A stretch of 50,273 nt of DNA, taken from NCBI GenBank assembly GCA_017609405.1, contig JAFCDZ010000003.1, positions 1 through 50,273 on the forward strand. The letters are read 5' to 3'. The position numbers were made by a program, and so were the translations under genes. The DNA is from Candidatus Pacearchaeota archaeon. GTDB taxonomy: Archaea > Nanobdellota > Nanobdellia > Pacearchaeales > GW2011-AR1. Under the pieces are notes generated by a model. It was not told the DNA's origin. It did no database searches and saw nothing but the letters and a program-made list of their open reading frames with translations. This document shows positions 12,383-22,027 of the stretch, one piece after another. How positions within the stretch are numbered: the first letter of the stretch is position 1; every line of letters starts with the position of its first letter.

Positions 12383-13027
12383 TTATTCTTTTGAGTTGTC
12401 TCCAAGCTGTTCGAATACTCCTTCAATTTGTCTTGCTCTTCTTCCAAGGTCTACTTTTTTAGCAATATTTAGTGCTTCTGCTAATAAGTAGTCTCCCATA
12501 AGTAATCCAAGAGCTTGTTGTGCTAAGCTTAATCTTTTTTTGTCCTCATCACTTAATAAATCTTCATCAAGTGTTCCTTCTTCTTTTTTCATTATTTCTT
12601 CAACTACTTCACTATATGACTTCTTTTTCCATTCTTCAGGGATTTCTGGAGGAGTTCTCGTGAATCCTTCTTTTCCATCATATTTTTCTTCTATTAATTC
12701 TTCTATTTCTCCGTATGTTAATTGCTGAATAGTGTTTTGAAATATTTCATTTATTTTTTTAAATGCTTCTTCATATGATGGGTCTGCAAAAGGATTTCCT
12801 TTCCAGGTTCTTTCTTCTCCACCCTCTTTTATTTTTTTTACTATTCCATTATCTTCTCCCCACTCTCGAACTATTTCACCTAATGTTTGTCTGCCCTCAT
12901 CTATACCTGTCTTACCAAAATAATTAAGATATTCTTCATTTCTCCCTTCTGCAAGCTCTCTTGCAGCGATTACTCTTCCATAGTTTCTTATTCTATCTAA
13001 ATTTGCTTCTTTATAATCATCAGCCAT
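12383..13027 (-). CDS. Hypothetical protein
   Basis: 214-aa ORF with TTTATAAA box about 22 nt upstream. Confidence 0.75.
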   Translation of the reverse strand: MADDYKEANLDRIRNYGRVIAARELAEGRNEEYLNYFGKTGIDEGRQTLGEIVREWGEDNGIVKKIKEGGEERTWKGNPFADPSYEEAFKKINEIFQNTIQQLTYGEIEELIEEKYDGKEGFTRTPPEIPEEWKKKSYSEVVEEIMKKEEGTLDEDLLSDEDKKRLSLAQQALGLLMGDYLLAEALNIAKKVDLGRRARQIEGVFEQLGDNSKE

Positions 13028-13094
13028 GATTTATATTAGAATTTAGGGTTTATAAATCTTTCGTTTTTGTTATTACTCTGTAGAAATAACAATT

Positions 13095-13640
13095 TTATTT
13101 CTTTTCAAGGACTTTTGTTACAAATCCTGTTTTACAAGGTAGTTTTGGTTTTATTTTTTTAAGTATCTCTCTTGCTATTTTTTCACCTTTCTCATCAACT
13201 ACTGCTATTGTGAATATTTCTTTTCCTTTTTTTACAATTGCTGCAAGGTTCATTGTTTTTCCAAAAGAAAGCTGCATTCCTGTCTGCATTCTGTCAGCAC
13301 CAGCCCCTGTGAGCATTCTATTTTCTCTTTGTATATGATGTGGGTGAACTTTTACTTGGAAAAAATATTGCTTTGCTAATTGAGCCTCTAATTTTTTATT
13401 TATATATTGTCTGCAAGCTTCTAATGCAAAATCCCTTATCTGAACATCTTCTTTTGAAACTAATGAAACTTCATAAGAAAGTTTTCCTTGCCTATATAAA
13501 TCAGAATTACCCATTTGGAATTTTACTAATTTCTTATTTGGGACTGTTTTTATATATGATTTGCTTCTTTTCTTGCTCTTTCGAGTATAAGGAACAACTC
13601 TGTGTTTTGAATATGCTGATGCTTTTCTTGCTTGTGCCAT
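13095..13640 (-). CDS. rpl10e: 50S ribosomal protein uL16 (L10e)
   Basis: ALEACRQYINK, GAGADRMQTGMQLSFGK, KLP motifs. Confidence 0.96.
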   Translation of the reverse strand: MAQARKASAYSKHRVVPYTRKSKKRSKSYIKTVPNKKLVKFQMGNSDLYRQGKLSYEVSLVSKEDVQIRDFALEACRQYINKKLEAQLAKQYFFQVKVHPHHIQRENRMLTGAGADRMQTGMQLSFGKTMNLAAIVKKGKEIFTIAVVDEKGEKIAREILKKIKPKLPCKTGFVTKVLEKK

Positions 13641-13641
13641 T

Positions 13642-13905
13642 TTATTCTTTTACCTCTACTTCTGTTGTTATTGCTTGCCCTGGAAGACCTTTTTCAAAAA
13701 TAGCTCTTACAAGGCCTTTATTTCCATGAGGAGCAGATATTTTTCCTTTTATTATTTTTCCACTTGGGGTTTTCCATTCTACTTCTTTTCCAACAAATTT
13801 CTCTGCTTTTTCTCTTGAATCAATCCCATTAATTTCAATTATGAAATGTCTCTCATGAACTGTGTGCCTTCCTCTTCTGAATTGTATAACTTTGCCTTTT
13901 GTCAT
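13642..13905 (-). CDS. rpl35ae: 50S ribosomal protein eL33 (L35Ae)
   Basis: FRRG, GKISAPHGNKGLVRAIFEKGLPGQA. Confidence 0.96.
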   Translation of the reverse strand: MTKGKVIQFRRGRHTVHERHFIIEINGIDSREKAEKFVGKEVEWKTPSGKIIKGKISAPHGNKGLVRAIFEKGLPGQAITTEVEVKE

Positions 13906-13964
13906 AATATTCTCATGATAAAATTAGTTTAAAAAGATTATGTTCTTGTAATTTATATAGGTTT

Positions 13965-14309
13965 TTAAAAATATTGAAAATCAAAACCTCTTAATAATGC
14001 TTCTAAACTTTCTTTTGTTTGTTGTTCTAATCTCTTTTGTTTTAAATTTTCAAATCTATCTAAAGGCATAAGAGAATTATCTTCTATTTCAGATGGTAAC
14101 CTATTAATTTTAATTTCCTTTAATTCATCATAAATCTCTTTTTCCCTTCCGTTACCTCTAGATTGATCCAATACATATACTTTCATTCCATCATAGTCTC
14201 TCAATATAATATAAACTTCATCATCTTCTCCAAAAAAAGCAATGAAATATCCTCTTCTAATACTTTGTGTGATTTCAGAAACTTCGACTCTTTCAGATAC
14301 TCCAAACAT
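13965..14309 (-). CDS. Hypothetical protein
   Basis: 114-aa ORF starting 1 nt after the upstream stop. Confidence 0.65.
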   Translation of the reverse strand: MFGVSERVEVSEITQSIRRGYFIAFFGEDDEVYIILRDYDGMKVYVLDQSRGNGREKEIYDELKEIKINRLPSEIEDNSLMPLDRFENLKQKRLEQQTKESLEALLRGFDFQYF

Positions 14310-14310
14310 T

Positions 14311-16086
14311 TTACCTTATTAATTTTATTGTGAAATTTCCGTAATACTGGTTAAGAAGTTTTATTTGAGTATAATTTAAATCAGTTATTCTTTTTTCCTT
14401 GTTTTTTTCAAGTTCTTCAATAACTTCCTCCATATTTGATTTTTCTACTTTATTGCTTATTTTGAGGACATTTTCTTTTTCAATCACAAAAAGATTCTCT
14501 CCAGTTAAGATTAATTCTGCAGTTTCTTTTTGTTCACTTTTAGAATATTCTAATAACATTTTTTTATTTTTGTTTTCTTCTATGTCTTTGATTTGAATAT
14601 ATGTTTGGAGGCCATTAATTAGGTTTGCAGACTCTTTTCTTATCTCATCAACTTTCTGGAATCCAATATTTTTCTTTTTTATTTCTGATTTAGCTTTTAT
14701 TATTTTATTAAGAGCTTCTAATTGTCTTGCTGTGAAGACACCTTTTTTTACAAACTCTTTTTCAAACTCTTCTAAAAGGGCTTTTTTTGTTTTCTTTTTG
14801 AATATTTTTTCAAGAAGTTCAAAAACTTGTTCATATAAATTTTCAATTGTTCTTTCTTCTGCCTTTTTTTCTATTTCTTTTCTTAATTCTTTTAATCTTT
14901 CTAAATACTCTTCAGTATTTTTCAAGAGCCTATCAATTTCTTTTCCACTTATTTCTTTTAATCTTCCATGCTCATAATCTTTGTAAAGCTTTACAACTTC
15001 TGCAAGAGTATCAATGTATTTTTTTTCGAGAATTTTTTCTTTTTTTAAGAAAACTCTTTCCATTTCTTTTACTGTTTGTTTTGGTGTTGGTGGTGCTAAT
15101 CCATACAACATTAAGATTCCTTGGCTTGGGGTTAATGCACTCCAATAAATATCATGAACAAGAATATCCATTAGTGCTCTATGAGCTCTTTTTGTTCCTT
15201 GGTCTCCAGAAGACATAAACATATTTATTGCTTCTGGGCTTGGTTTTAGCTTTCCCATTCTTAGTAGGGCTTTCCATGGAAGGAATGTCCCTCTGTCATG
15301 GAGCGGGAAGCCATCTCTTATGAATGTAAACATAACTGGAACAGCATCTTTTACACTATCCCAGAATTCTGTTAGTAAATATATCTGTGGCTCTAATTTA
15401 TTTTTTGCTCCAGCAAGGAAGGAAGCTTCACTTACCATCTGGTATATTTGAGCTCTTAGTCTTTCCTTTAACTCTATTCTTGACATTCTTTTTACATCTG
15501 TGTCATTGATTATAATGAAAACATCTACATCAGAGGTCTTTGTTGCTTCTCCTCTTACTAAACTTCCTGCAATAACATAACTTACAACATATTTATCAAA
15601 TTTTTTTAATACAAGTGCTTTATGTATTTCTGCTACTCTTAAAGCATCAAGGAAACCAGTGTCATAGATTGGGAAGGATAATCCAATTGCATTTACTAAT
15701 TCAAACCTACTGTCAAGACATGCTTCAAATACATCAACAGGGGTTTTTATCTGTAGCCATATTTTTCTATCTTTTTTTTCTTCTATTTTTCTAATAATAT
15801 CTTCTTTTATTTTTGGGATATCTTTATAATGTTTTTCAGGAATTAACATGTATAGGTGAATGTGTTTCTCTGTTTCTTTTGGAACTTCTTCTTCCTCAAT
15901 AAAAAGGTCTATGCTTTGCGGTGGTAAAATACTAAGAGAAAGGGTGAAAGGATATTTTTTTATAATGTATTTTTTTAATTCTTCAAGTTCTTTTTTTGTT
16001 TTTTCCAATTCATCCTTTGCTTTTATGTTATTTGTCGGAAGCTCTGGTATTTTCGGGTTTTTGTAATTTTCTATCTTTTCATCCAT
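14311..16086 (-). CDS. Nucleotidyltransferase-domain protein (degenerate NTase, NTase, HEPN-like and coiled C-terminus)
   Basis: IAGSLVRG...SDVDVFIIINDTD; PEA and YW...SQ.IL...PP.P motifs shared with 11526-12377. Confidence 0.8.
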   Translation of the reverse strand: MDEKIENYKNPKIPELPTNNIKAKDELEKTKKELEELKKYIIKKYPFTLSLSILPPQSIDLFIEEEEVPKETEKHIHLYMLIPEKHYKDIPKIKEDIIRKIEEKKDRKIWLQIKTPVDVFEACLDSRFELVNAIGLSFPIYDTGFLDALRVAEIHKALVLKKFDKYVVSYVIAGSLVRGEATKTSDVDVFIIINDTDVKRMSRIELKERLRAQIYQMVSEASFLAGAKNKLEPQIYLLTEFWDSVKDAVPVMFTFIRDGFPLHDRGTFLPWKALLRMGKLKPSPEAINMFMSSGDQGTKRAHRALMDILVHDIYWSALTPSQGILMLYGLAPPTPKQTVKEMERVFLKKEKILEKKYIDTLAEVVKLYKDYEHGRLKEISGKEIDRLLKNTEEYLERLKELRKEIEKKAEERTIENLYEQVFELLEKIFKKKTKKALLEEFEKEFVKKGVFTARQLEALNKIIKAKSEIKKKNIGFQKVDEIRKESANLINGLQTYIQIKDIEENKNKKMLLEYSKSEQKETAELILTGENLFVIEKENVLKISNKVEKSNMEEVIEELEKNKEKRITDLNYTQIKLLNQYYGNFTIKLIR

Positions 16087-16241
16087 ATCTTAATTATGGA
16101 TTATGTGTTTTTAAATGTTTTTTATTAAACTTTTGTCCTAAAAAGGATATTATAAAGAAAGGGTTAATATCTAATTACCTTATGGCAAGGTTCAGCAAAG
16201 ATAATCAAAAAAGTACAGAATTCAAATTTTTTAATTAATTT

Positions 16242-19100
16242 TTAAACTTTTAAACTAACAATCTTACTTATTCCTTTATTTATGCTTACTCCGTAAAGTG
16301 CTGTTGCGTTTCTAATTATTTCATCATTATGGGATATTATTATGTATTGTCCTTTTTGAATATATTTTTTTAACCATTCTGCTAATCTGCTTGAGTTTCT
16401 TTTGTCAAGTGCTGCATCAATTTCATCAAGGATATAAAAATAATAAGGTTTTAGTTCCTGTATTGCAAAAATAAGGGATAAAGATACAAGGGTCTGTTCC
16501 CCTCCTGACAATGATGTTACATCAAAATACTTTCCTTGTCCCATTTTAACAACAATGTCAACCCCTCCTTCAAAAGGATTTTTTGAATTTTCTAGTTCGA
16601 GATAGACCTCTCCCTTTGAACTTAATTTTGAGAAATTTTTTGAGAAATGTTCATTAATTGAATTGAATGTGTTAAGGAATGTTTTTTTCTTTTTTACATC
16701 AATTTCATGAATAACTTTTAGAATTTTTTCCTTCTCTTTTTCAATTGTTTCGACTCTTTGTTTAACTGCTTCGTATTCTTTTTTTATCTCTTCATAGACC
16801 TCTAATGCTCTTAAATTTACTGAGCCTATTTTTTCTAAGGCTTCTTTTGTTTTTTGTAGTCTTTTTATAAGAGAGTCCTTTTTATCTCTTATAAATTCTA
16901 TTCCTTGGAATTCAAGCAATTCTTTTTCTAAATTCTCTATCTCTGCATTTATCCTTGCTTCTTCTATTTTTAACATATTACGTTTTTCTTCGTTGCTTCT
17001 TATCTCTGTTTGTATCTTCATTATTTGCCTTTCGTGTTTTCTAATCTCTTCATGAAGGGCATCTCTTTTTTCTATTAATTTTTTGAATTTTTTTGATAAT
17101 TCTTCCTCTTCTTTAAGCATCTTTTCAAGAAGTTTTTCCTTTTTTTCTAAGTCCTTTTTCATTAGTTCTAATTCCTCTTCTGCTTCTTGTTCTTCTCTTT
17201 TTAGTTGTTTTAATGATGCTTCAATTCTATTTTTTTCTCTTCTTTTGAACGCAATTTCAGAATCAAGGTTCTGCTCACTAATTAATGCTATCTCATCAAT
17301 TTCTATTTTTAGTTGCTCGTACTTTTCTTCAACATCTTTATTTTTACTTAGGGATTCTTGGAGAAAAGTTTGTTTTTGTCTTAATTCCCCTATCTCTTTA
17401 AAATCTTGTTTTATTTTTTCTTTTATCTTTTTAATTTGTTCAGTTTTTTCATTTATTATCTTTAATTTAATAATGTCTGACTCTCTTTTTCTTATCTCTT
17501 CTACTACTTCTTTTTCTTTTTCAATCAGTGTTTCTATTTTATTTTTTATTTCCTTAAGTTCTTTTAGATTCCTCTCTTTTTTATTTTCTTGTTCTAATAT
17601 TTGTGGTTCAGTTTCTCTTTTAATTGATGCTATGTGCTCTTCTGTTATCTTGTTCTTGCATAAAGGGCAAACATCTAAGCTTGCAATTTTTTCAATTAAT
17701 TTTTTTAACCTTTCTATCTCGCTTTCAGAAAAATTTATTTCTCTTTTTATTTTTTCTTCCAATTCTTCAAGATTTTTTATTTCCTGATTTAATTTTTCCT
17801 CTTTTATTTTTAGTTCTTTTATTTTCTCTTCAGAAGAATTAATATCAAAAAGTTCTTTGGTTAATGTTTCTATTTGCTCCACTAAAAAATCTGCTTCCTT
17901 GTTTTGTTGCTTCAAAAGAAACTCTTTTTCTTCAATTCTCTCTTTTACAGTTTTTAGTTCTGTTTTTGTTATGTAATATTTTTTTCTCCTTATTTCAAGC
18001 TCTTCAAGCTGTTTTTTCTTTTTTTCAAATTCTTTTTGCTTCATTGAGACTGTTGGTGTGTTTACCTCTAACTCTCTTATTTCATTTTCTAATTCAATGC
18101 TCTTGTTCTCAATGTCTTGTTTTTTGTTTTGTGTTTCAATAAGCTTTGATTCCAGATTTTCTATCCTGACATTTAATCCCGCTATCTCTGCTCTGATATT
18201 AGCAATTTCTCTGTTCAATTGTTCCTGTTCTAATCCAGTTGAACTTTGAATTTTTGAATTAAGTTCATTTATCTTTTCTTTTAGAGAGTTAATTTCTTTT
18301 TCATAAGATATTATTTTTTCTTTTAACTTGTTTATCTTATTGTTATGCAAGTCTATTTCAGAGGTTATCTTTTTACTCTCTTTTTTTCGGTTATTTAAGT
18401 CATGAAATAATATGCTTGCTTTTAATCTTTTTACATCGCTCTCTAATTTTTTGAATCTTAATGCTTGTTGCCTCTCTTTTTCAAGATTATTTAAATAAGA
18501 TGTTCTTTCTCTTAATATTGCAGAGATTTCTTTTAATTTTTCTTCTGTTTTCTCAAGTTCTCTAAGTGCTTTTTCTTTTCTTACTTCATAAACTGAAATT
18601 CCTGATATCTCTTCGATAATTTTTCTCCTTTCTTCCCCTTTCATTTTTGTAAATCTTTGTATCTCTCCTTGGAGAATTATGTTGAATCCATTTGGATCTA
18701 TTCCTGCTTGAGCTAAAAGCATTAAAACTTCTTGTCTTGTTTTTGTCTCATTATTTATCTTGTATGTGCTCTGCCCATTTCGCTTTATTATCCTTTTTAA
18801 GGTGATTTCGTCTCTATCTATTGCAAAAACCCTTCCTTCATTATCAAATACAACTTCTACATAGGCCTCTTTTGCAGGTTTTATTCCCTCTGAACCCATG
18901 AATAAGAGATTCTTTGCTTTTGACGCTCTCATGGATTTTGCACTTAATCTTCCCAGTACAAAACATAAAGCATCAGATATGTTTGATTTTCCTGAGCCAT
19001 TTAGACCAACAATAACATTTATGTTTTTTGTGAATTCAATCTCTGTTTTTTTAGCAAAACTCTTGAAACCTTGCATCACCAACTTTTTAATGTAGGTCAT
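16242..19100 (-). CDS. smc: Smc chromosome segregation ATPase with central CxxC zinc-hook-like motif
   Basis: GFKSF, GLNGSGKSN, IILQGEI, GSVNLRALEVYEE, LSGGE, ILDEIDAALD; CPLC at residues 478-481 of 952; no globular hinge evident. Confidence 0.88.
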   Translation of the reverse strand: MTYIKKLVMQGFKSFAKKTEIEFTKNINVIVGLNGSGKSNISDALCFVLGRLSAKSMRASKAKNLLFMGSEGIKPAKEAYVEVVFDNEGRVFAIDRDEITLKRIIKRNGQSTYKINNETKTRQEVLMLLAQAGIDPNGFNIILQGEIQRFTKMKGEERRKIIEEISGISVYEVRKEKALRELEKTEEKLKEISAILRERTSYLNNLEKERQQALRFKKLESDVKRLKASILFHDLNNRKKESKKITSEIDLHNNKINKLKEKIISYEKEINSLKEKINELNSKIQSSTGLEQEQLNREIANIRAEIAGLNVRIENLESKLIETQNKKQDIENKSIELENEIRELEVNTPTVSMKQKEFEKKKKQLEELEIRRKKYYITKTELKTVKERIEEKEFLLKQQNKEADFLVEQIETLTKELFDINSSEEKIKELKIKEEKLNQEIKNLEELEEKIKREINFSESEIERLKKLIEKIASLDVCPLCKNKITEEHIASIKRETEPQILEQENKKERNLKELKEIKNKIETLIEKEKEVVEEIRKRESDIIKLKIINEKTEQIKKIKEKIKQDFKEIGELRQKQTFLQESLSKNKDVEEKYEQLKIEIDEIALISEQNLDSEIAFKRREKNRIEASLKQLKREEQEAEEELELMKKDLEKKEKLLEKMLKEEEELSKKFKKLIEKRDALHEEIRKHERQIMKIQTEIRSNEEKRNMLKIEEARINAEIENLEKELLEFQGIEFIRDKKDSLIKRLQKTKEALEKIGSVNLRALEVYEEIKKEYEAVKQRVETIEKEKEKILKVIHEIDVKKKKTFLNTFNSINEHFSKNFSKLSSKGEVYLELENSKNPFEGGVDIVVKMGQGKYFDVTSLSGGEQTLVSLSLIFAIQELKPYYFYILDEIDAALDKRNSSRLAEWLKKYIQKGQYIIISHNDEIIRNATALYGVSINKGISKIVSLKV

Positions 19101-19147
19101 GAATAATAAAAGACGAAATTATTTTTAAAGATTGGTGTTTTAAACTC

Positions 19148-19819
19148 TTAAAACAACTTCATCTGCTCTGAATCTCTTTTTGCTCTTTGAAATGTTTCCC
19201 AAGATTTTCTAAATATTCCGTCGTCTTTGTATTTTTGGAGGTATTTTTCAAGAAACTTTGCTGTTATTGGGTCTGAAGCATATCCTGAACCAATTTCAAT
19301 ACCGTATTTTTCTTTTAACTTCTCCATTTCTTCTTCTCTTTTTGTTTTTGCTAAAATAGATGCTGCTGAGACCGGGATATGGTTTTTATCTGCTTTATGC
19401 TCGCAAACTATTTCAAGATTTCTTAAATCATTTATTTTTAATTTTAATTCATCTGTCCAAGAGATTATAGATACTGATGGGCAATCCACAACAACCCTTA
19501 TTTTTTGCTCAGGGTTTCTTTCTATAATTTTGTTGATTATCTCTGCTGTTTTTATTGCCTCAATAGTATTCAGGTTTGTTCTGTTTTCCATGAAGTTATC
19601 CAATTCCTCTGGATGCGTTAGAATTATTTCAAAATCTTCTGCAATTTCTAATATTTTCTCTTTCAAGAATAATCTTCTTTTTTGTGTTAGCTCTTTAGAA
19701 TCCTTTACTCCTAATTTGAATAAATAATCAAAATGTTCTTCTCTGATTAAACAGCCAGCTAAGACCATGGGTCCAATAACAGGCCCTCTTCCAGCATCAT
19801 CAATTCCTAAAACTATCAT
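19148..19819 (-). CDS. rnhB: Ribonuclease HII
   Basis: GIDDAGRGPVIGPMV, VKDSKEL, KAD...VSAASILAK, GSGY; start at MIVLG. Confidence 0.95.
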   Translation of the reverse strand: MIVLGIDDAGRGPVIGPMVLAGCLIREEHFDYLFKLGVKDSKELTQKRRLFLKEKILEIAEDFEIILTHPEELDNFMENRTNLNTIEAIKTAEIINKIIERNPEQKIRVVVDCPSVSIISWTDELKLKINDLRNLEIVCEHKADKNHIPVSAASILAKTKREEEMEKLKEKYGIEIGSGYASDPITAKFLEKYLQKYKDDGIFRKSWETFQRAKRDSEQMKLF

Positions 19820-19901
19820 GGAAGAATTAGATTCTTTTCTTTTAAAAAAGTTTGTTGTCTTTTTTTGCAATTAAAAAATAAAAAAGAAAAAAGGGTGAGA
19901 T

Positions 19902-21110
19902 TTAGTAATAGCTCTCACCCAAGTCTTCTTTTGGCTGTCTTCTTGTTAGTAACACAATTAAAACAGCCACTAAAACAACAAATACAACTGCTAAAATAAC
20001 AGTTATAATTGTTAAAGGGTCTACAGAGTTGTCTTCTTCAGCACTAAGGCTGTAAGCAACTTCATTGATTAAATCGTTGCCTGCGAAAACTTTCACATTA
20101 AAGGTGTAGTCCCCTTCTTTAGCTGCATTTGCTGTAATGGTAATTGACCTGCTTGAACCAGCTGGAACAACTACAAGGCTATCACTAGCACTAACTTCTA
20201 AGTTCTTTGAGCTTTCTGGAACAATTCTATAAACCTTTATGTTGCTTGTAGGGTTTATTAATAATAGCTCAAAGTCTACATTTTCATCTGTTCCAGCTTT
20301 TTTTCTATCTGTTGGAACAATTGTGTTTCCAGGGAATTCATTTTGGATTGTTATTGATTTAACAATTCCCTGTTGTAGGTCGTCTCCACTAACAACAACT
20401 TCCATGTTATAAATTCCAGGTTTTGTGTCATCTGGAATTCTTAAAGAAATTGTTCTGCTTACTGTGTCTGTTTCATCACAGTCTTCATCACAGCTTGGGT
20501 CAATTGGAACAAGGTCTCCTAAATAAGCAGACCTATCTAAACCAAGTGCAGGAATTCTTACTGTTAGATAAAGGTCATTTATGTCATTATATCCTCTATT
20601 TTTCACAACAACATTGACCTTCATGTATTCTCCTGATTTTACAGGACTTTCAACAGAGACTGACTTAATCTCTGCGTTGTATGAAGGTCTCTGCACTCTA
20701 ACAACAAATTCTCTTTCAGTTTTGAAGTCTCCATTCCATATCTTTAAGTTAAGAGTTGCATGGTCTGAAACTTCATCCCATAATTCATATGGAACCTTGA
20801 GAACAAGGCTTTTTCTGTAGCTTATGTTTGCTTCAACGTCAAAAGAAGGTGTTCTGACAACAGCGTCAGTTTTTTCACCTTCTAATTCAGCCTTTATTCT
20901 CACGTCTGTTGCGTTTGTGAGTGCAGTGAAGTACACATCAATTACAACATTACTTCCTGCAGTTACAGACACCTCATTGTGAGTAAATGCATTAACATCA
21001 TCAATATAGACTGAAGAGATGTCTGCTATTTCAGCAGCACTAACTGAAACCATTACAGCCAAGATGCTTACTAGTGCAAAAAGCACTTTACTTATTATTT
21101 TTGTTTCCAT
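19902..21110 (-). CDS. S-layer-like/CARDB-domain surface protein with C-terminal membrane anchor
   Basis: Signal peptide ending VSA, Ig-like repeats (VKNRG...D), C-terminal TM helix and ESYY tail. Confidence 0.75.
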   Translation of the reverse strand: METKIISKVLFALVSILAVMVSVSAAEIADISSVYIDDVNAFTHNEVSVTAGSNVVIDVYFTALTNATDVRIKAELEGEKTDAVVRTPSFDVEANISYRKSLVLKVPYELWDEVSDHATLNLKIWNGDFKTEREFVVRVQRPSYNAEIKSVSVESPVKSGEYMKVNVVVKNRGYNDINDLYLTVRIPALGLDRSAYLGDLVPIDPSCDEDCDETDTVSRTISLRIPDDTKPGIYNMEVVVSGDDLQQGIVKSITIQNEFPGNTIVPTDRKKAGTDENVDFELLLINPTSNIKVYRIVPESSKNLEVSASDSLVVVPAGSSRSITITANAAKEGDYTFNVKVFAGNDLINEVAYSLSAEEDNSVDPLTIITVILAVVFVVLVAVLIVLLTRRQPKEDLGESYY

Positions 21111-21250
21111 CTTGACTTGTTTTTATTATAAAATTTAATTTAACAGAAAACAAAGTTTTCTGTATCTTTATTATCCCTAAATTATTTATAAACTTTATGG
21201 TAACAACAGAATATATTAATTTTAAAGTTACTACTTGTTTGAACAGGTAG

Positions 21251-22027
21251 TTACTTATTTAATTTTTCTAGAATTCTCATTCCTTCAATTGCGTCAGCTA
21301 CTGGAGCAGGAGACTCATTTATTATTGTTATTTCTTTTTTTGGTAAATTCTTAAAAAGAAGCCTCCATTCTCTTGGCTTTGTTATTGTGTGATACTTTTC
21401 ACCTTTTTCTCCATAAACAATTCCTGAGAAATGAATGTGTAATTTTTTTTCTTTTTTGAATAATTCAAATACTTCCCTGAATTTATATTCTCCATATCTT
21501 GCTAATATATGCGCGAAGTCGATACAAGGTCTTATTTTTGTTTCTTTTACTAATTTTGAAATCTCCTCTATTGAGCCGAATACATTTTTTTTACCCATTG
21601 TCTCGACACAGAGTTCTACTTTCCATGAATTCTTTTTACAAATATTTTTCATATCTACAATTGCTCTTTTTATATTCTCAAAAGCTTCTTCTTTTGTTCT
21701 CTTTCCGTAATATCCAGGGTGAAATACAACACACTTTGCTCCAAGATAATTGGCAATTTTACAACAATCTAAAATTCTTTTTTTTGAAGCCTCTATTTTT
21801 TCTTTCTCTTCTGAGTTTAGATTGATATAGTAAGGAGAATGTATGCTTAAGCCTACTCCTAATTTTTTTGCGATTTTTCCAATTCTTATAGCATCTTCTT
21901 TTTTCTTTATATAGATGCTATGGGTAAATGCTATCTCACATGCTTTTATCCCTAATTTAGAATATTCTTTTAGAGTTTTTTCTGCTCTGCTTACTGGGCC
22001 AAGTCCTGCAGGACCAATTCTTATCAT
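21251..22027 (-). CDS. nfo: Endonuclease IV (archaeal type)
   Basis: SIHSPYYINL, VFHPG, ETMGK, CIDFAH, HIHFSG, INESP. Confidence 0.9.
   Translation of the reverse strand: MIRIGPAGLGPVSRAEKTLKEYSKLGIKACEIAFTHSIYIKKKEDAIRIGKIAKKLGVGLSIHSPYYINLNSEEKEKIEASKKRILDCCKIANYLGAKCVVFHPGYYGKRTKEEAFENIKRAIVDMKNICKKNSWKVELCVETMGKKNVFGSIEEISKLVKETKIRPCIDFAHILARYGEYKFREVFELFKKEKKLHIHFSGIVYGEKGEKYHTITKPREWRLLFKNLPKKEITIINESPAPVADAIEGMRILEKLNK

Follow-up and report, generated by a model that had tools for sequence, protein, structure and literature searches.

We analysed a stretch of 50,273 nucleotides from a Candidatus Pacearchaeota archaeon (positions 1 to 50,273 of contig JAFCDZ010000003.1, assembly GCA_017609405.1), hereafter the window, which encodes on its minus strand, at 16242-19100, a structural maintenance of chromosomes (SMC) protein of 952 amino acids (aa). 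The head and arms of this protein are those of an archaeal Smc, and the place of the globular hinge is taken by a short segment carrying the zinc-hook motif of Rad50. The hinge is regarded as a hallmark of SMC proteins, and roles in DNA binding and as a DNA gate have been proposed for it. An earlier note on this DNA, made from the sequence of the window, had read the gene as a condensin-type Smc in which a Rad50-like hook replaces the hinge. Our analysis supports this reading, the tests proposed against it (affiliation of the head, a hidden hinge, conservation of the cysteine pair) having all turned out in its favour. The window has a G+C content of about 29% and belongs to a genome assembly of 739,754 bases in 31 contigs, estimated to be 86.8% complete.

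The smc gene and the architecture of its product

According to the list of open reading frames (ORFs) and their translations, smc consists of 952 codons and a stop on the minus strand of 16242-19100, the earlier note having given no strand; the plus-strand frame of the same interval contains many stops and is closed. The parts of the gene are the following, with the evidence for each in brackets.

16242..19100, minus strand: smc, hinge-less and hook-bearing, with its stop codon at 16242-16244 (SMC_N, TIGR02169 and 5xei matches, scored below)
18597..19100, minus strand: N-terminal half of the ATPase head, about residues 1-168 (GFKSF, Walker A and Q-loop; AlphaFold2 model; matches to Smc heads in the PDB)
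17679..18596, minus strand: N-terminal strand of the coiled-coil arm, about residues 169-474 (AlphaFold2 model; positions 1-457 of the hinged-Smc profile)
17589..17726, minus strand: Rad50-type zinc-hook segment, residues 459-504 (PF04423, CPxC conservation, apex model, profile match to 6zff and 1l8d)
17658-17669, minus strand: the CPLC codons, within the zinc-hook segment
Residues 475-486, minus strand: apex loop, LDVCPLCKNKIT, which holds CPLC
16623..17642, minus strand: C-terminal strand of the coiled-coil arm, about residues 487-826 (AlphaFold2 model; positions 673-1164 of the hinged-Smc profile)
16245..16622, minus strand: C-terminal half of the ATPase head, about residues 827-952 (LSGGE, LDEIDAALD, SHN; matches to 3kta_B and 1xew_Y)

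The Smc head motifs quoted in the earlier note were all found in the translation, and the length of 952 aa and the near-midpoint position of CPLC at residues 478-481 were equally borne out. GFKSF lies at residues 11-15, the Walker A motif GLNGSGKSN at 32-40, the Q-loop LQG at 143-145, the signature LSGGE at 864-868, the Walker B motif LDEIDAALD at 891-899 and SHN at 923-925, while the GSVNLRALEVYEE motif, at residues 759-771, falls in the C-terminal arm strand. The protein has three cysteines in all, at positions 46, 478 and 481.

Every comparison of the head and arms placed them with Smc. Pfam SMC_N spans the full length of the protein (158.9 bits), and the two best NCBIfam matches are Smc equivalogs, TIGR02169 (SMC_prok_A) at 534.9 bits and TIGR02168 at 520.2 bits; the best stretch aligns residues 3-472 with model positions 1-482 of 1165 and ends where the hinge would start. 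NCBIfam models of Rad50 score at most 121.8 bits (cut-offs of 700 to 1087) and the ASRP model NF045487 scores 113.6 bits (cut-off of 300). The best relatives in the PDB are Smc heads from Pyrococcus and other organisms (5xei, E-value of 2.9e-107), with Rad50 heads appearing from 2.2e-15 down, and the C-terminal Smc head chains 3kta_B and 1xew_Y match at about 1e-32. A profile built from 13 hinged Smcs of the same taxonomic class pairs residues 1-454 with its positions 1-457 (411 bits) and residues 448-952 with its positions 673-1164 (368 bits), leaving positions 458-672 with no counterpart in the protein; a profile of 30 Rad50 proteins of the class yields 45-57 bits per piece, the middle piece aligning the two hooks. 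The protein thus combines an ABC-type head closest to Smc heads with a long antiparallel arm homologous to Smc arms. NCBIfam scores, PDB ranking, profile comparison and the head tree presented below all favour Smc over Rad50 and, judged by sequence, the 952-aa protein is the Smc of this genome, an orthologue by descent of the archaeal condensin-type Smc.

No match to Pfam SMC_hinge (PF06470) was obtained at an E-value of 1 or better in the protein or anywhere in the genome, the model scoring 103.6 bits on protein P0147, used as a positive control. A local hinge model, built from 12 hinged Smc relatives, matched none of the 120 hook-bearing relatives described in the next section, and in a multiple alignment with hinged relatives the hinge block of about 200 residues gives way to a short CPxC segment. 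The full-length AlphaFold2 monomer model (48 aligned sequences; mean predicted local distance difference test score, pLDDT, of 79.6; predicted template modelling score, pTM, of 0.44) is helical over residues 169-826 with short breaks, and shows no globular domain between the heads. A cryptic hinge was rejected on these negative results, together with that of an order-wide SMC_hinge search (see below). The helix breaks of the model lie at residues 210-219, 288-289, 346-354 and 417-423 in the N-terminal arm strand and at 587-589, 608-613, 730-740 and 759-764 in the C-terminal one. They are roughly symmetric about the apex, 346-354 facing 608-613 some 128 residues away from it and 210-219 facing 730-740 at some 260 residues, as a folded-back antiparallel arm would be predicted to give; these paired breaks are presumably akin to the discontinuities known as elbow and joint in other SMC arms. 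In other families of the class, three genomes carry hinged Smcs of 893-944 aa with a normal hinge and shortened arms, so that a short total length is by itself no sign of hinge loss.

The hook was located by Pfam Rad50_zn_hook (PF04423), which in a six-frame scan of the genome matches 17589-17726 on the minus strand with 32.2 bits (E-value of 8.1e-8; cut-off of 24.3) and scores 30.2 bits, again above the cut-off, on an isolated apex fragment of 120 aa. Scanning the full-length protein with Pfam missed the hook, and 14 of 48 family members pass PF04423 in full-length scans. The expectation of the earlier note that a hidden Markov model (HMM) scan would find no SMC_hinge and a Rad50_zn_hook thus held for the hinge, and held for the hook with the apex scanned alone, not with the full-length protein. 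An AlphaFold2 model of an apex fragment (residues 380-580, 201 aa, from an alignment of eight sequences) has a mean pLDDT of 95.4 and shows two long helices with the loop 475-486 between them, CPLC being placed at the turn.

Conservation, distribution, descent and partners

Relatives were searched with residues 330-640, a seed that restricts the result to proteins alike in this region, although identity still goes down to 27%. This gave 124 proteins at an E-value of 0.001 or better, of which 120 were listed; most are 943-956 aa long, and some come from entries labelled by their submitters as Nanoarchaeota or Pacearchaeota "chromosome segregation SMC". All 120 listed relatives have one CxxC each, always CPxC and always at the midpoint. 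Five residues, C478, P479, C481, T486 and H489, show no variation in an alignment of 111 relatives (925-980 aa) and again in a 48-row alignment; amid 27-49% identity, this is the pattern expected of a metal site. The best 150 matches of an exhaustive HMMER search, run over 1.84 billion cluster representatives, fall into 33 with a midpoint CPxC but lacking a hinge, 100 that are hinged but lack CPxC, and 17 with neither feature (several of these being fragments); none combines both. Conservation in orthologues, which the earlier note had made a test of its reading, is therefore clear: the CPxC motif is under strong purifying conservation and is not a chance feature.

The hook form marks one order of DPANN archaea, whose members carry the submitter labels Woesearchaeota, Pacearchaeota or Nanoarchaeota, and sister orders keep a hinged Smc of about 1165 aa. 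In a phylum sample of 301 genomes, all of one class and including the unpublished G243 and G244 (one hinged-type row each), only 15 genomes gave a one-piece, end-to-end match to the family profile in frames of 952-988 aa: all 14 of the family of the window, its own genome included, and the one genome by which a second family of this order is represented in the sample. The remaining matching genomes gave two-piece matches, mostly in frames of about 1140-1270 aa among the 150 of 591 matches listed. A denser sample of the order comprised 121 genomes at least 70% complete, searched with the family profile at an E-value of 1e-60 or better; 118 of them match, none with a frame of canonical size, and the match covers the hook region in 103 of the 118. 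SMC_hinge was found in none of 61 genomes of the order (at least 85% complete) and, within a class sample, in 31 of 41 genomes, including none of the three from the family of the window. At least six loci with the hook form were also found in metagenome-assembled genomes (MAGs) in GenBank, five from Candidatus Woesearchaeota and one from Candidatus Pacearchaeota.

Descent was examined with a tree of the heads and head-proximal coil (444 columns), from which residues 231-739, that is the arms, the apex and hence the trait itself, had been removed. The 50 rows comprised the protein of the window, 13 of 32 new hook representatives (full-length and intein-free), four hook loci, four apex-less Smcs, 26 hinged Smcs (two of them the Bacillota outgroup) and two Smcs of bacteria of the candidate phyla radiation (CPR). 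The tree was inferred under LG+G4 with IQ-TREE, rooted on Bacillota Smc, and branch support was given by the Shimodaira-Hasegawa-like approximate likelihood ratio test (SH-aLRT). The 18 hook rows and the four apex-less rows form one clade with an SH-aLRT of 99, placed inside the archaeal Smcs as sister to the hinged Smcs of the same class. Since the hinge is universal outside the hook clade, the hook form is the derived one. Within the clade the apex-less rows are dispersed, one being sister to a hook row with a support of 99, which suggests from the sequences that apex-less forms arose by repeated secondary loss.

Reduced, enlarged and missing forms were encountered along the way. Four apex-less Smcs of 781-871 aa lack both hinge and CxxC, the arm being shortened around the former apex; the same form occurs at eight further loci, in eight genomes of the same order, and the genomes with an apex-less Smc keep ScpA. 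Short Smcs of 732-771 aa are also present in MAGs of CPR/Patescibacteria (Kaiserbacteria, Saccharibacteria, Parcubacteria, Paceibacterota and others; 11 loci), without CxxC and without a hinge by the local model, Pfam SMC_hinge being absent in the three that were scanned. At the other extreme, eight genomes of the order have hook-type frames of about 1490-1516 aa. Five hook-type Smcs, from about 1474 aa upwards, carry intein/LAGLIDADG Pfam domains; the family-profile match starts at position 37-38 in the enlarged Smcs, which places the intein directly after the Walker A region. The order member G314 has a hook-type Smc split over two contigs and a divergent full-length match (417 bits, frame of 1000 aa), which may be a second Smc-like gene or contamination. 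G059 and G248, two single-contig genomes of the same class (500-600 kb, 95-98% complete), gave no Smc-profile match at an E-value of 1e-20 or better, no SMC_hinge and no match to a Rad50 query, and may be archaea without both Smc and Rad50.

The partners of an Smc-ScpAB complex are encoded in the genome of the window. ScpA is a 289-aa ORF on contig C20 (PF02616, 44.6 bits), ScpB lies on contig C21 (122.9 bits), and ScpA was detected in 49 of 51 genomes of the order. A separate Rad50-type protein of 683 aa (AAA_23, SbcC_Walker_B), with CPTC at its midpoint (residue 350), is encoded directly downstream of a 388-aa Mre11-like metallophosphoesterase (contig C21, 3706-6925, minus strand); the genes flanking this pair encode an aRF1-type release factor and a class I tRNA synthetase. 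The only other SMC_N-like matches in the genome are this Rad50 and an ABC transporter, so the 952-aa protein is the sole Smc found in this 86.8%-complete assembly. The earlier note had stated that neither scpA/scpB nor mre11 is adjacent to smc and had called for a genome-wide search for a kleisin and a separate Rad50-Mre11 pair: the former is correct within the window, and the latter brought up all these genes elsewhere.

The neighbours of smc are co-directional, occupying 12383-22027 of the window on the minus strand, and no kleisin or nuclease gene (scpA, scpB or mre11) stands next to it in the window.

21251-22027, minus strand: AP endonuclease 2 family gene, upstream of smc
19902-21110, minus strand: 402-aa ORF of no known family with weak Fn3-like matches, upstream of smc
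19148-19870, minus strand: RNase HII, upstream of smc
14311-16086, minus strand: 591-aa protein with a nucleotidyltransferase domain, downstream of smc
Minus strand: two ORFs of no known family, 114 aa and 214 aa, downstream of smc
13095-13640, minus strand: ribosomal protein L10e, downstream of smc

Origin of the hook and rival explanations

The Smc hook has the consensus L-D-x-CPLCK-x-K-I-T-E-E-H in both the 111-row and the 48-row alignments. The Rad50 proteins of the class have one midpoint CxxC in all 30 sequences extracted, typically flanked as L-[DE]-x-CPxC-[KR]-Q-x-[IV]-[ST]-x-E-H, and the pattern L-D-x-CPxCK-x-x-[IV]-T-x-E-H is common to the Smc hook, to the Rad50 hooks of the class and to Rad50 of P. 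furiosus. An apex profile of 43 columns (residues 460-502, 111 Smc sequences) matched the hook in 25 of the 30 Rad50s at a domain E-value of 0.001 or better, with a best score of 33.6 bits, and all 29 positive Rad50 matches fell on the CxxC. None of 30 reversed decoys (best 1.5 bits) and none of 12 hinged Smcs (best 0.7 bits) was matched. From this likeness we infer that the hook segment was copied from a Rad50 gene.

Taken together, it is very probable that the genome encodes an Smc-ScpAB in which a Rad50-type hook has replaced the hinge and in which the arms are putatively joined by zinc. In the ancestor of this DPANN order, some 215 residues, comprising the globular hinge and the adjoining coiled-coil ends, would have been replaced by a segment of about 40 residues with a Rad50-type hook (L-D-x-C-P-x-C-K-x-K-I-T-x-E-H), most likely copied from Rad50 by recombination between paralogous genes for coiled-coil ATPases. 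Each Smc would fold back into an antiparallel coiled coil of about 300 residues with CPxC at the turn. Two such turns would share one zinc through their four cysteines, as in Rad50, and form a constitutive apex dimer in place of the hinge, and the Smc heads, driven by ATP and closed by ScpA together with ScpB, would do their DNA work like those of other Smc-ScpAB complexes. What the data show is the architecture, its conservation and descent, the partners and the distribution over lineages; zinc binding, dimerisation through the hook, the Rad50 origin of the segment and retention of condensin function are predictions. Hopfner et al. 2002 reportedly described zinc sharing between two Rad50 hooks. 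The zinc-shared apex is proposed here because of the Rad50 literature, to the extent of the available text of PMC6969161, and a working hook-bearing Smc is plausible because the engineered Smc(Zh) of B. subtilis, discussed in the next section, works.

Several results weigh against this proposal. The curated NCBIfam cut-offs are not reached by the Smc scores (534.9 against 729.4 bits and 520.2 against 567.35 bits), a shortfall that matches the missing hinge positions, and the head tree is a quick search on hand-picked rows. Both structure models, full-length and apex fragment, are monomers. Foldseek, run with the apex model, returned no match at an E-value of 0.001 or better: the Rad50 hook 1l8d_B came at rank 36 (E-value of 0.08, target template modelling score of 0.78, root-mean-square deviation of 3.3 over 99 columns) and 5gox_A at rank 16, amid Smc-arm fragments and generic coiled coils. 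When the eight-sequence apex profile was compared with the PDB, the top match was the unrelated coiled coil 5fiy (E-value of 0.00086), the P. furiosus Rad50 hooks 6zff (0.008) and 1l8d (0.012) also appearing, with CP-C----T-EH aligned; a single-sequence PDB search with the 120-aa apex gave GCN4-type coiled-coil noise alone. The Rad50 hooks of the window's own family are those that match the Smc apex profile least, at about 15 bits, so that no donor can be named. In the order sample, 15 of the 118 matching genomes have frames of about 795-908 aa (or frames split between contigs) from which model positions of about 400-510 are missing; such hook-less forms inside the hook clade indicate that the hook is not indispensable there and weaken any claim that it is functionally essential.

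Among the rival explanations, an artefact, by which misassembly or gene calling would have deleted the hinge from a canonical smc, is scarcely conceivable: the assembly of 31 contigs at 86.8% completeness would leave room for such an error, but the 943-956-aa form recurs on many independent contigs and sources, GenBank MAGs included, and 103 of the 118 sampled order genomes, several of them assembled into one to five contigs, carry it. This recurrence across genomes refutes the artefact. A paralogue of Rad50, or a member of the ASRP family (ClsN/Sph), would bring its hook by descent, since both families already have one, and would account for the weak matches to the Rad50 and ASRP models (121.8 bits for a cut-off of 700 and 113.6 bits for a cut-off of 300). 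Smc models nonetheless score four to five times higher, the PDB ranking, the profile comparison and the head tree favour Smc, a genuine Rad50 with Mre11 is encoded elsewhere in the genome, and the ScpA and ScpB encoded there would otherwise be left without an Smc. We rejected this highly improbable explanation on the head scores, the head tree and the separate Rad50-Mre11 pair.

Convergence would give the same architecture by another route, a two-cysteine turn having evolved de novo in Smc after deletion of the hinge. A CxxC at a coiled-coil turn is a tiny motif that occurs in several SMC-like families (Rad50/SbcC, and ASRP/ClsN in the accessible text of PMC9389158), the lowest similarity is that to the Rad50 hooks of the window's own family, and the profile comparison brought out no Rad50-like arm sequence around the segment beyond about 40 residues. 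The likeness nevertheless exceeds the cysteines, extending over L-D-x-CPxCK-x-x-[IV]-T-x-E-H, the apex profile parts 25 of 30 Rad50 hooks from all 42 controls, and the Pfam Rad50_zn_hook cut-off is passed, which makes convergence unlikely. The last rival concerns function and sees in the CPxC turn a structural cap that does not join two proteins through zinc, the dimer being held by arm packing, heads and kleisin and an apex link being dispensable. It finds some backing in the relatives of about 781-871 aa that sit in the hook clade with neither hinge nor CxxC, in genomes that still have ScpA. Against it stand the invariance of C478, P479, C481, T486 and H489 in 111 sequences at 27-49% apex identity and the fact that in Rad50 this motif has been proven to bring about dimerisation through zinc (structures 1l8d and 6zff; PMC6969161, in its available part), and we consider a mere cap quite improbable.

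Known systems and meaning of the hook-type Smc

The hook-type Smc shares with the archaeal Smc of Smc-ScpAB (5xei, 4i99) its head motifs, head and arm sequence, arm length and phylogenetic position, as well as the presence of ScpA and ScpB in the genome; it differs in lacking the hinge, in having a CPxC hook instead, in its length (952 against about 1165 aa) and in scoring below the NCBIfam cut-offs. With Rad50/SbcC it shares a CPxC hook of recognisably similar sequence at the midpoint of an antiparallel coiled coil, whereas its heads and arms are not Rad50-like and its gene has RNase HII and a nucleotidyltransferase, not Mre11, as neighbours. The ASRP proteins (ClsN, Sph1/2; Yoshinaga et al. 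2022, PMC9389158) are likewise archaeal members of the SMC superfamily with a hook and no hinge, as far as the consulted portion of that paper describes them, but they form a separate and shorter family (NCBIfam profile of 593 positions, about 600 aa) whose model the 952-aa protein matches far below the cut-off. A "hinge-less" SMC clade of oceanic Actinobacteria-like bacteria (Sussfeld et al. 2025, PMC12153180) is also natural and also lacks the hinge; according to its authors, in the available text, CXXC is absent from that clade, in contrast to the CPxC conserved throughout most of the archaeal order.

The closest parallel is an engineered one. In the accessible text of Burmann et al. 2017 (PMC5344682), B. 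subtilis Smc(Zh), whose hinge was exchanged for the hook of P. furiosus Rad50, supports normal growth and near-normal arm alignment; the converse construct, a yeast Rad50 with the MukB hinge, appears in the available part of Tatebe et al. 2020 (PMC6969161), and a review (PMC7752040, likewise in part) treats engineered hook/hinge chimeras. The domain swap and the kind of donor motif are the same as in Smc(Zh), as that construct is described there, except that here the swap is natural, fixed in an archaeal order and conserved under selection. No paper on a natural Smc with a hook was found in the full-text literature, a scope outside which most subscription journals and supplements fall (among them Table S4 and Figure S1 of PMC5344682); in the literature searched, the hook-for-hinge swap has so far been reported as an engineered construct only. 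The sequence survey of PMC5344682 used hinge alignments as bait, according to its Methods, and on this account would not have retrieved the hook form. More generally, HMM-based annotation and hinge-baited surveys miss or under-score hook-type Smcs.

That a whole order has fixed the swap while keeping its kleisin and ScpB speaks, on evolutionary grounds, against an essential role of the apex-domain fold in the function of Smc-ScpAB, and it documents an exchange of domains between two branches of the SMC superfamily. These natural proteins lend themselves to structural and single-molecule work on the question whether a hinge is needed for translocation or loop extrusion. A more tentative possibility, which we regard as rather doubtful, is that the order preserves a natural reduction series of the apex, from a hinge in the sister orders, through a Rad50-derived hook in most of the order, to no apex at all with arms shortened to a protein of about 800 aa, this last state being reached in several sublineages nested in the hook clade and ScpA being kept in all. 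If the apex-less forms are functional, Smc-ScpAB would work without a dedicated apex dimerisation domain, and the hinge would be required neither as a DNA gate nor for dimerisation.

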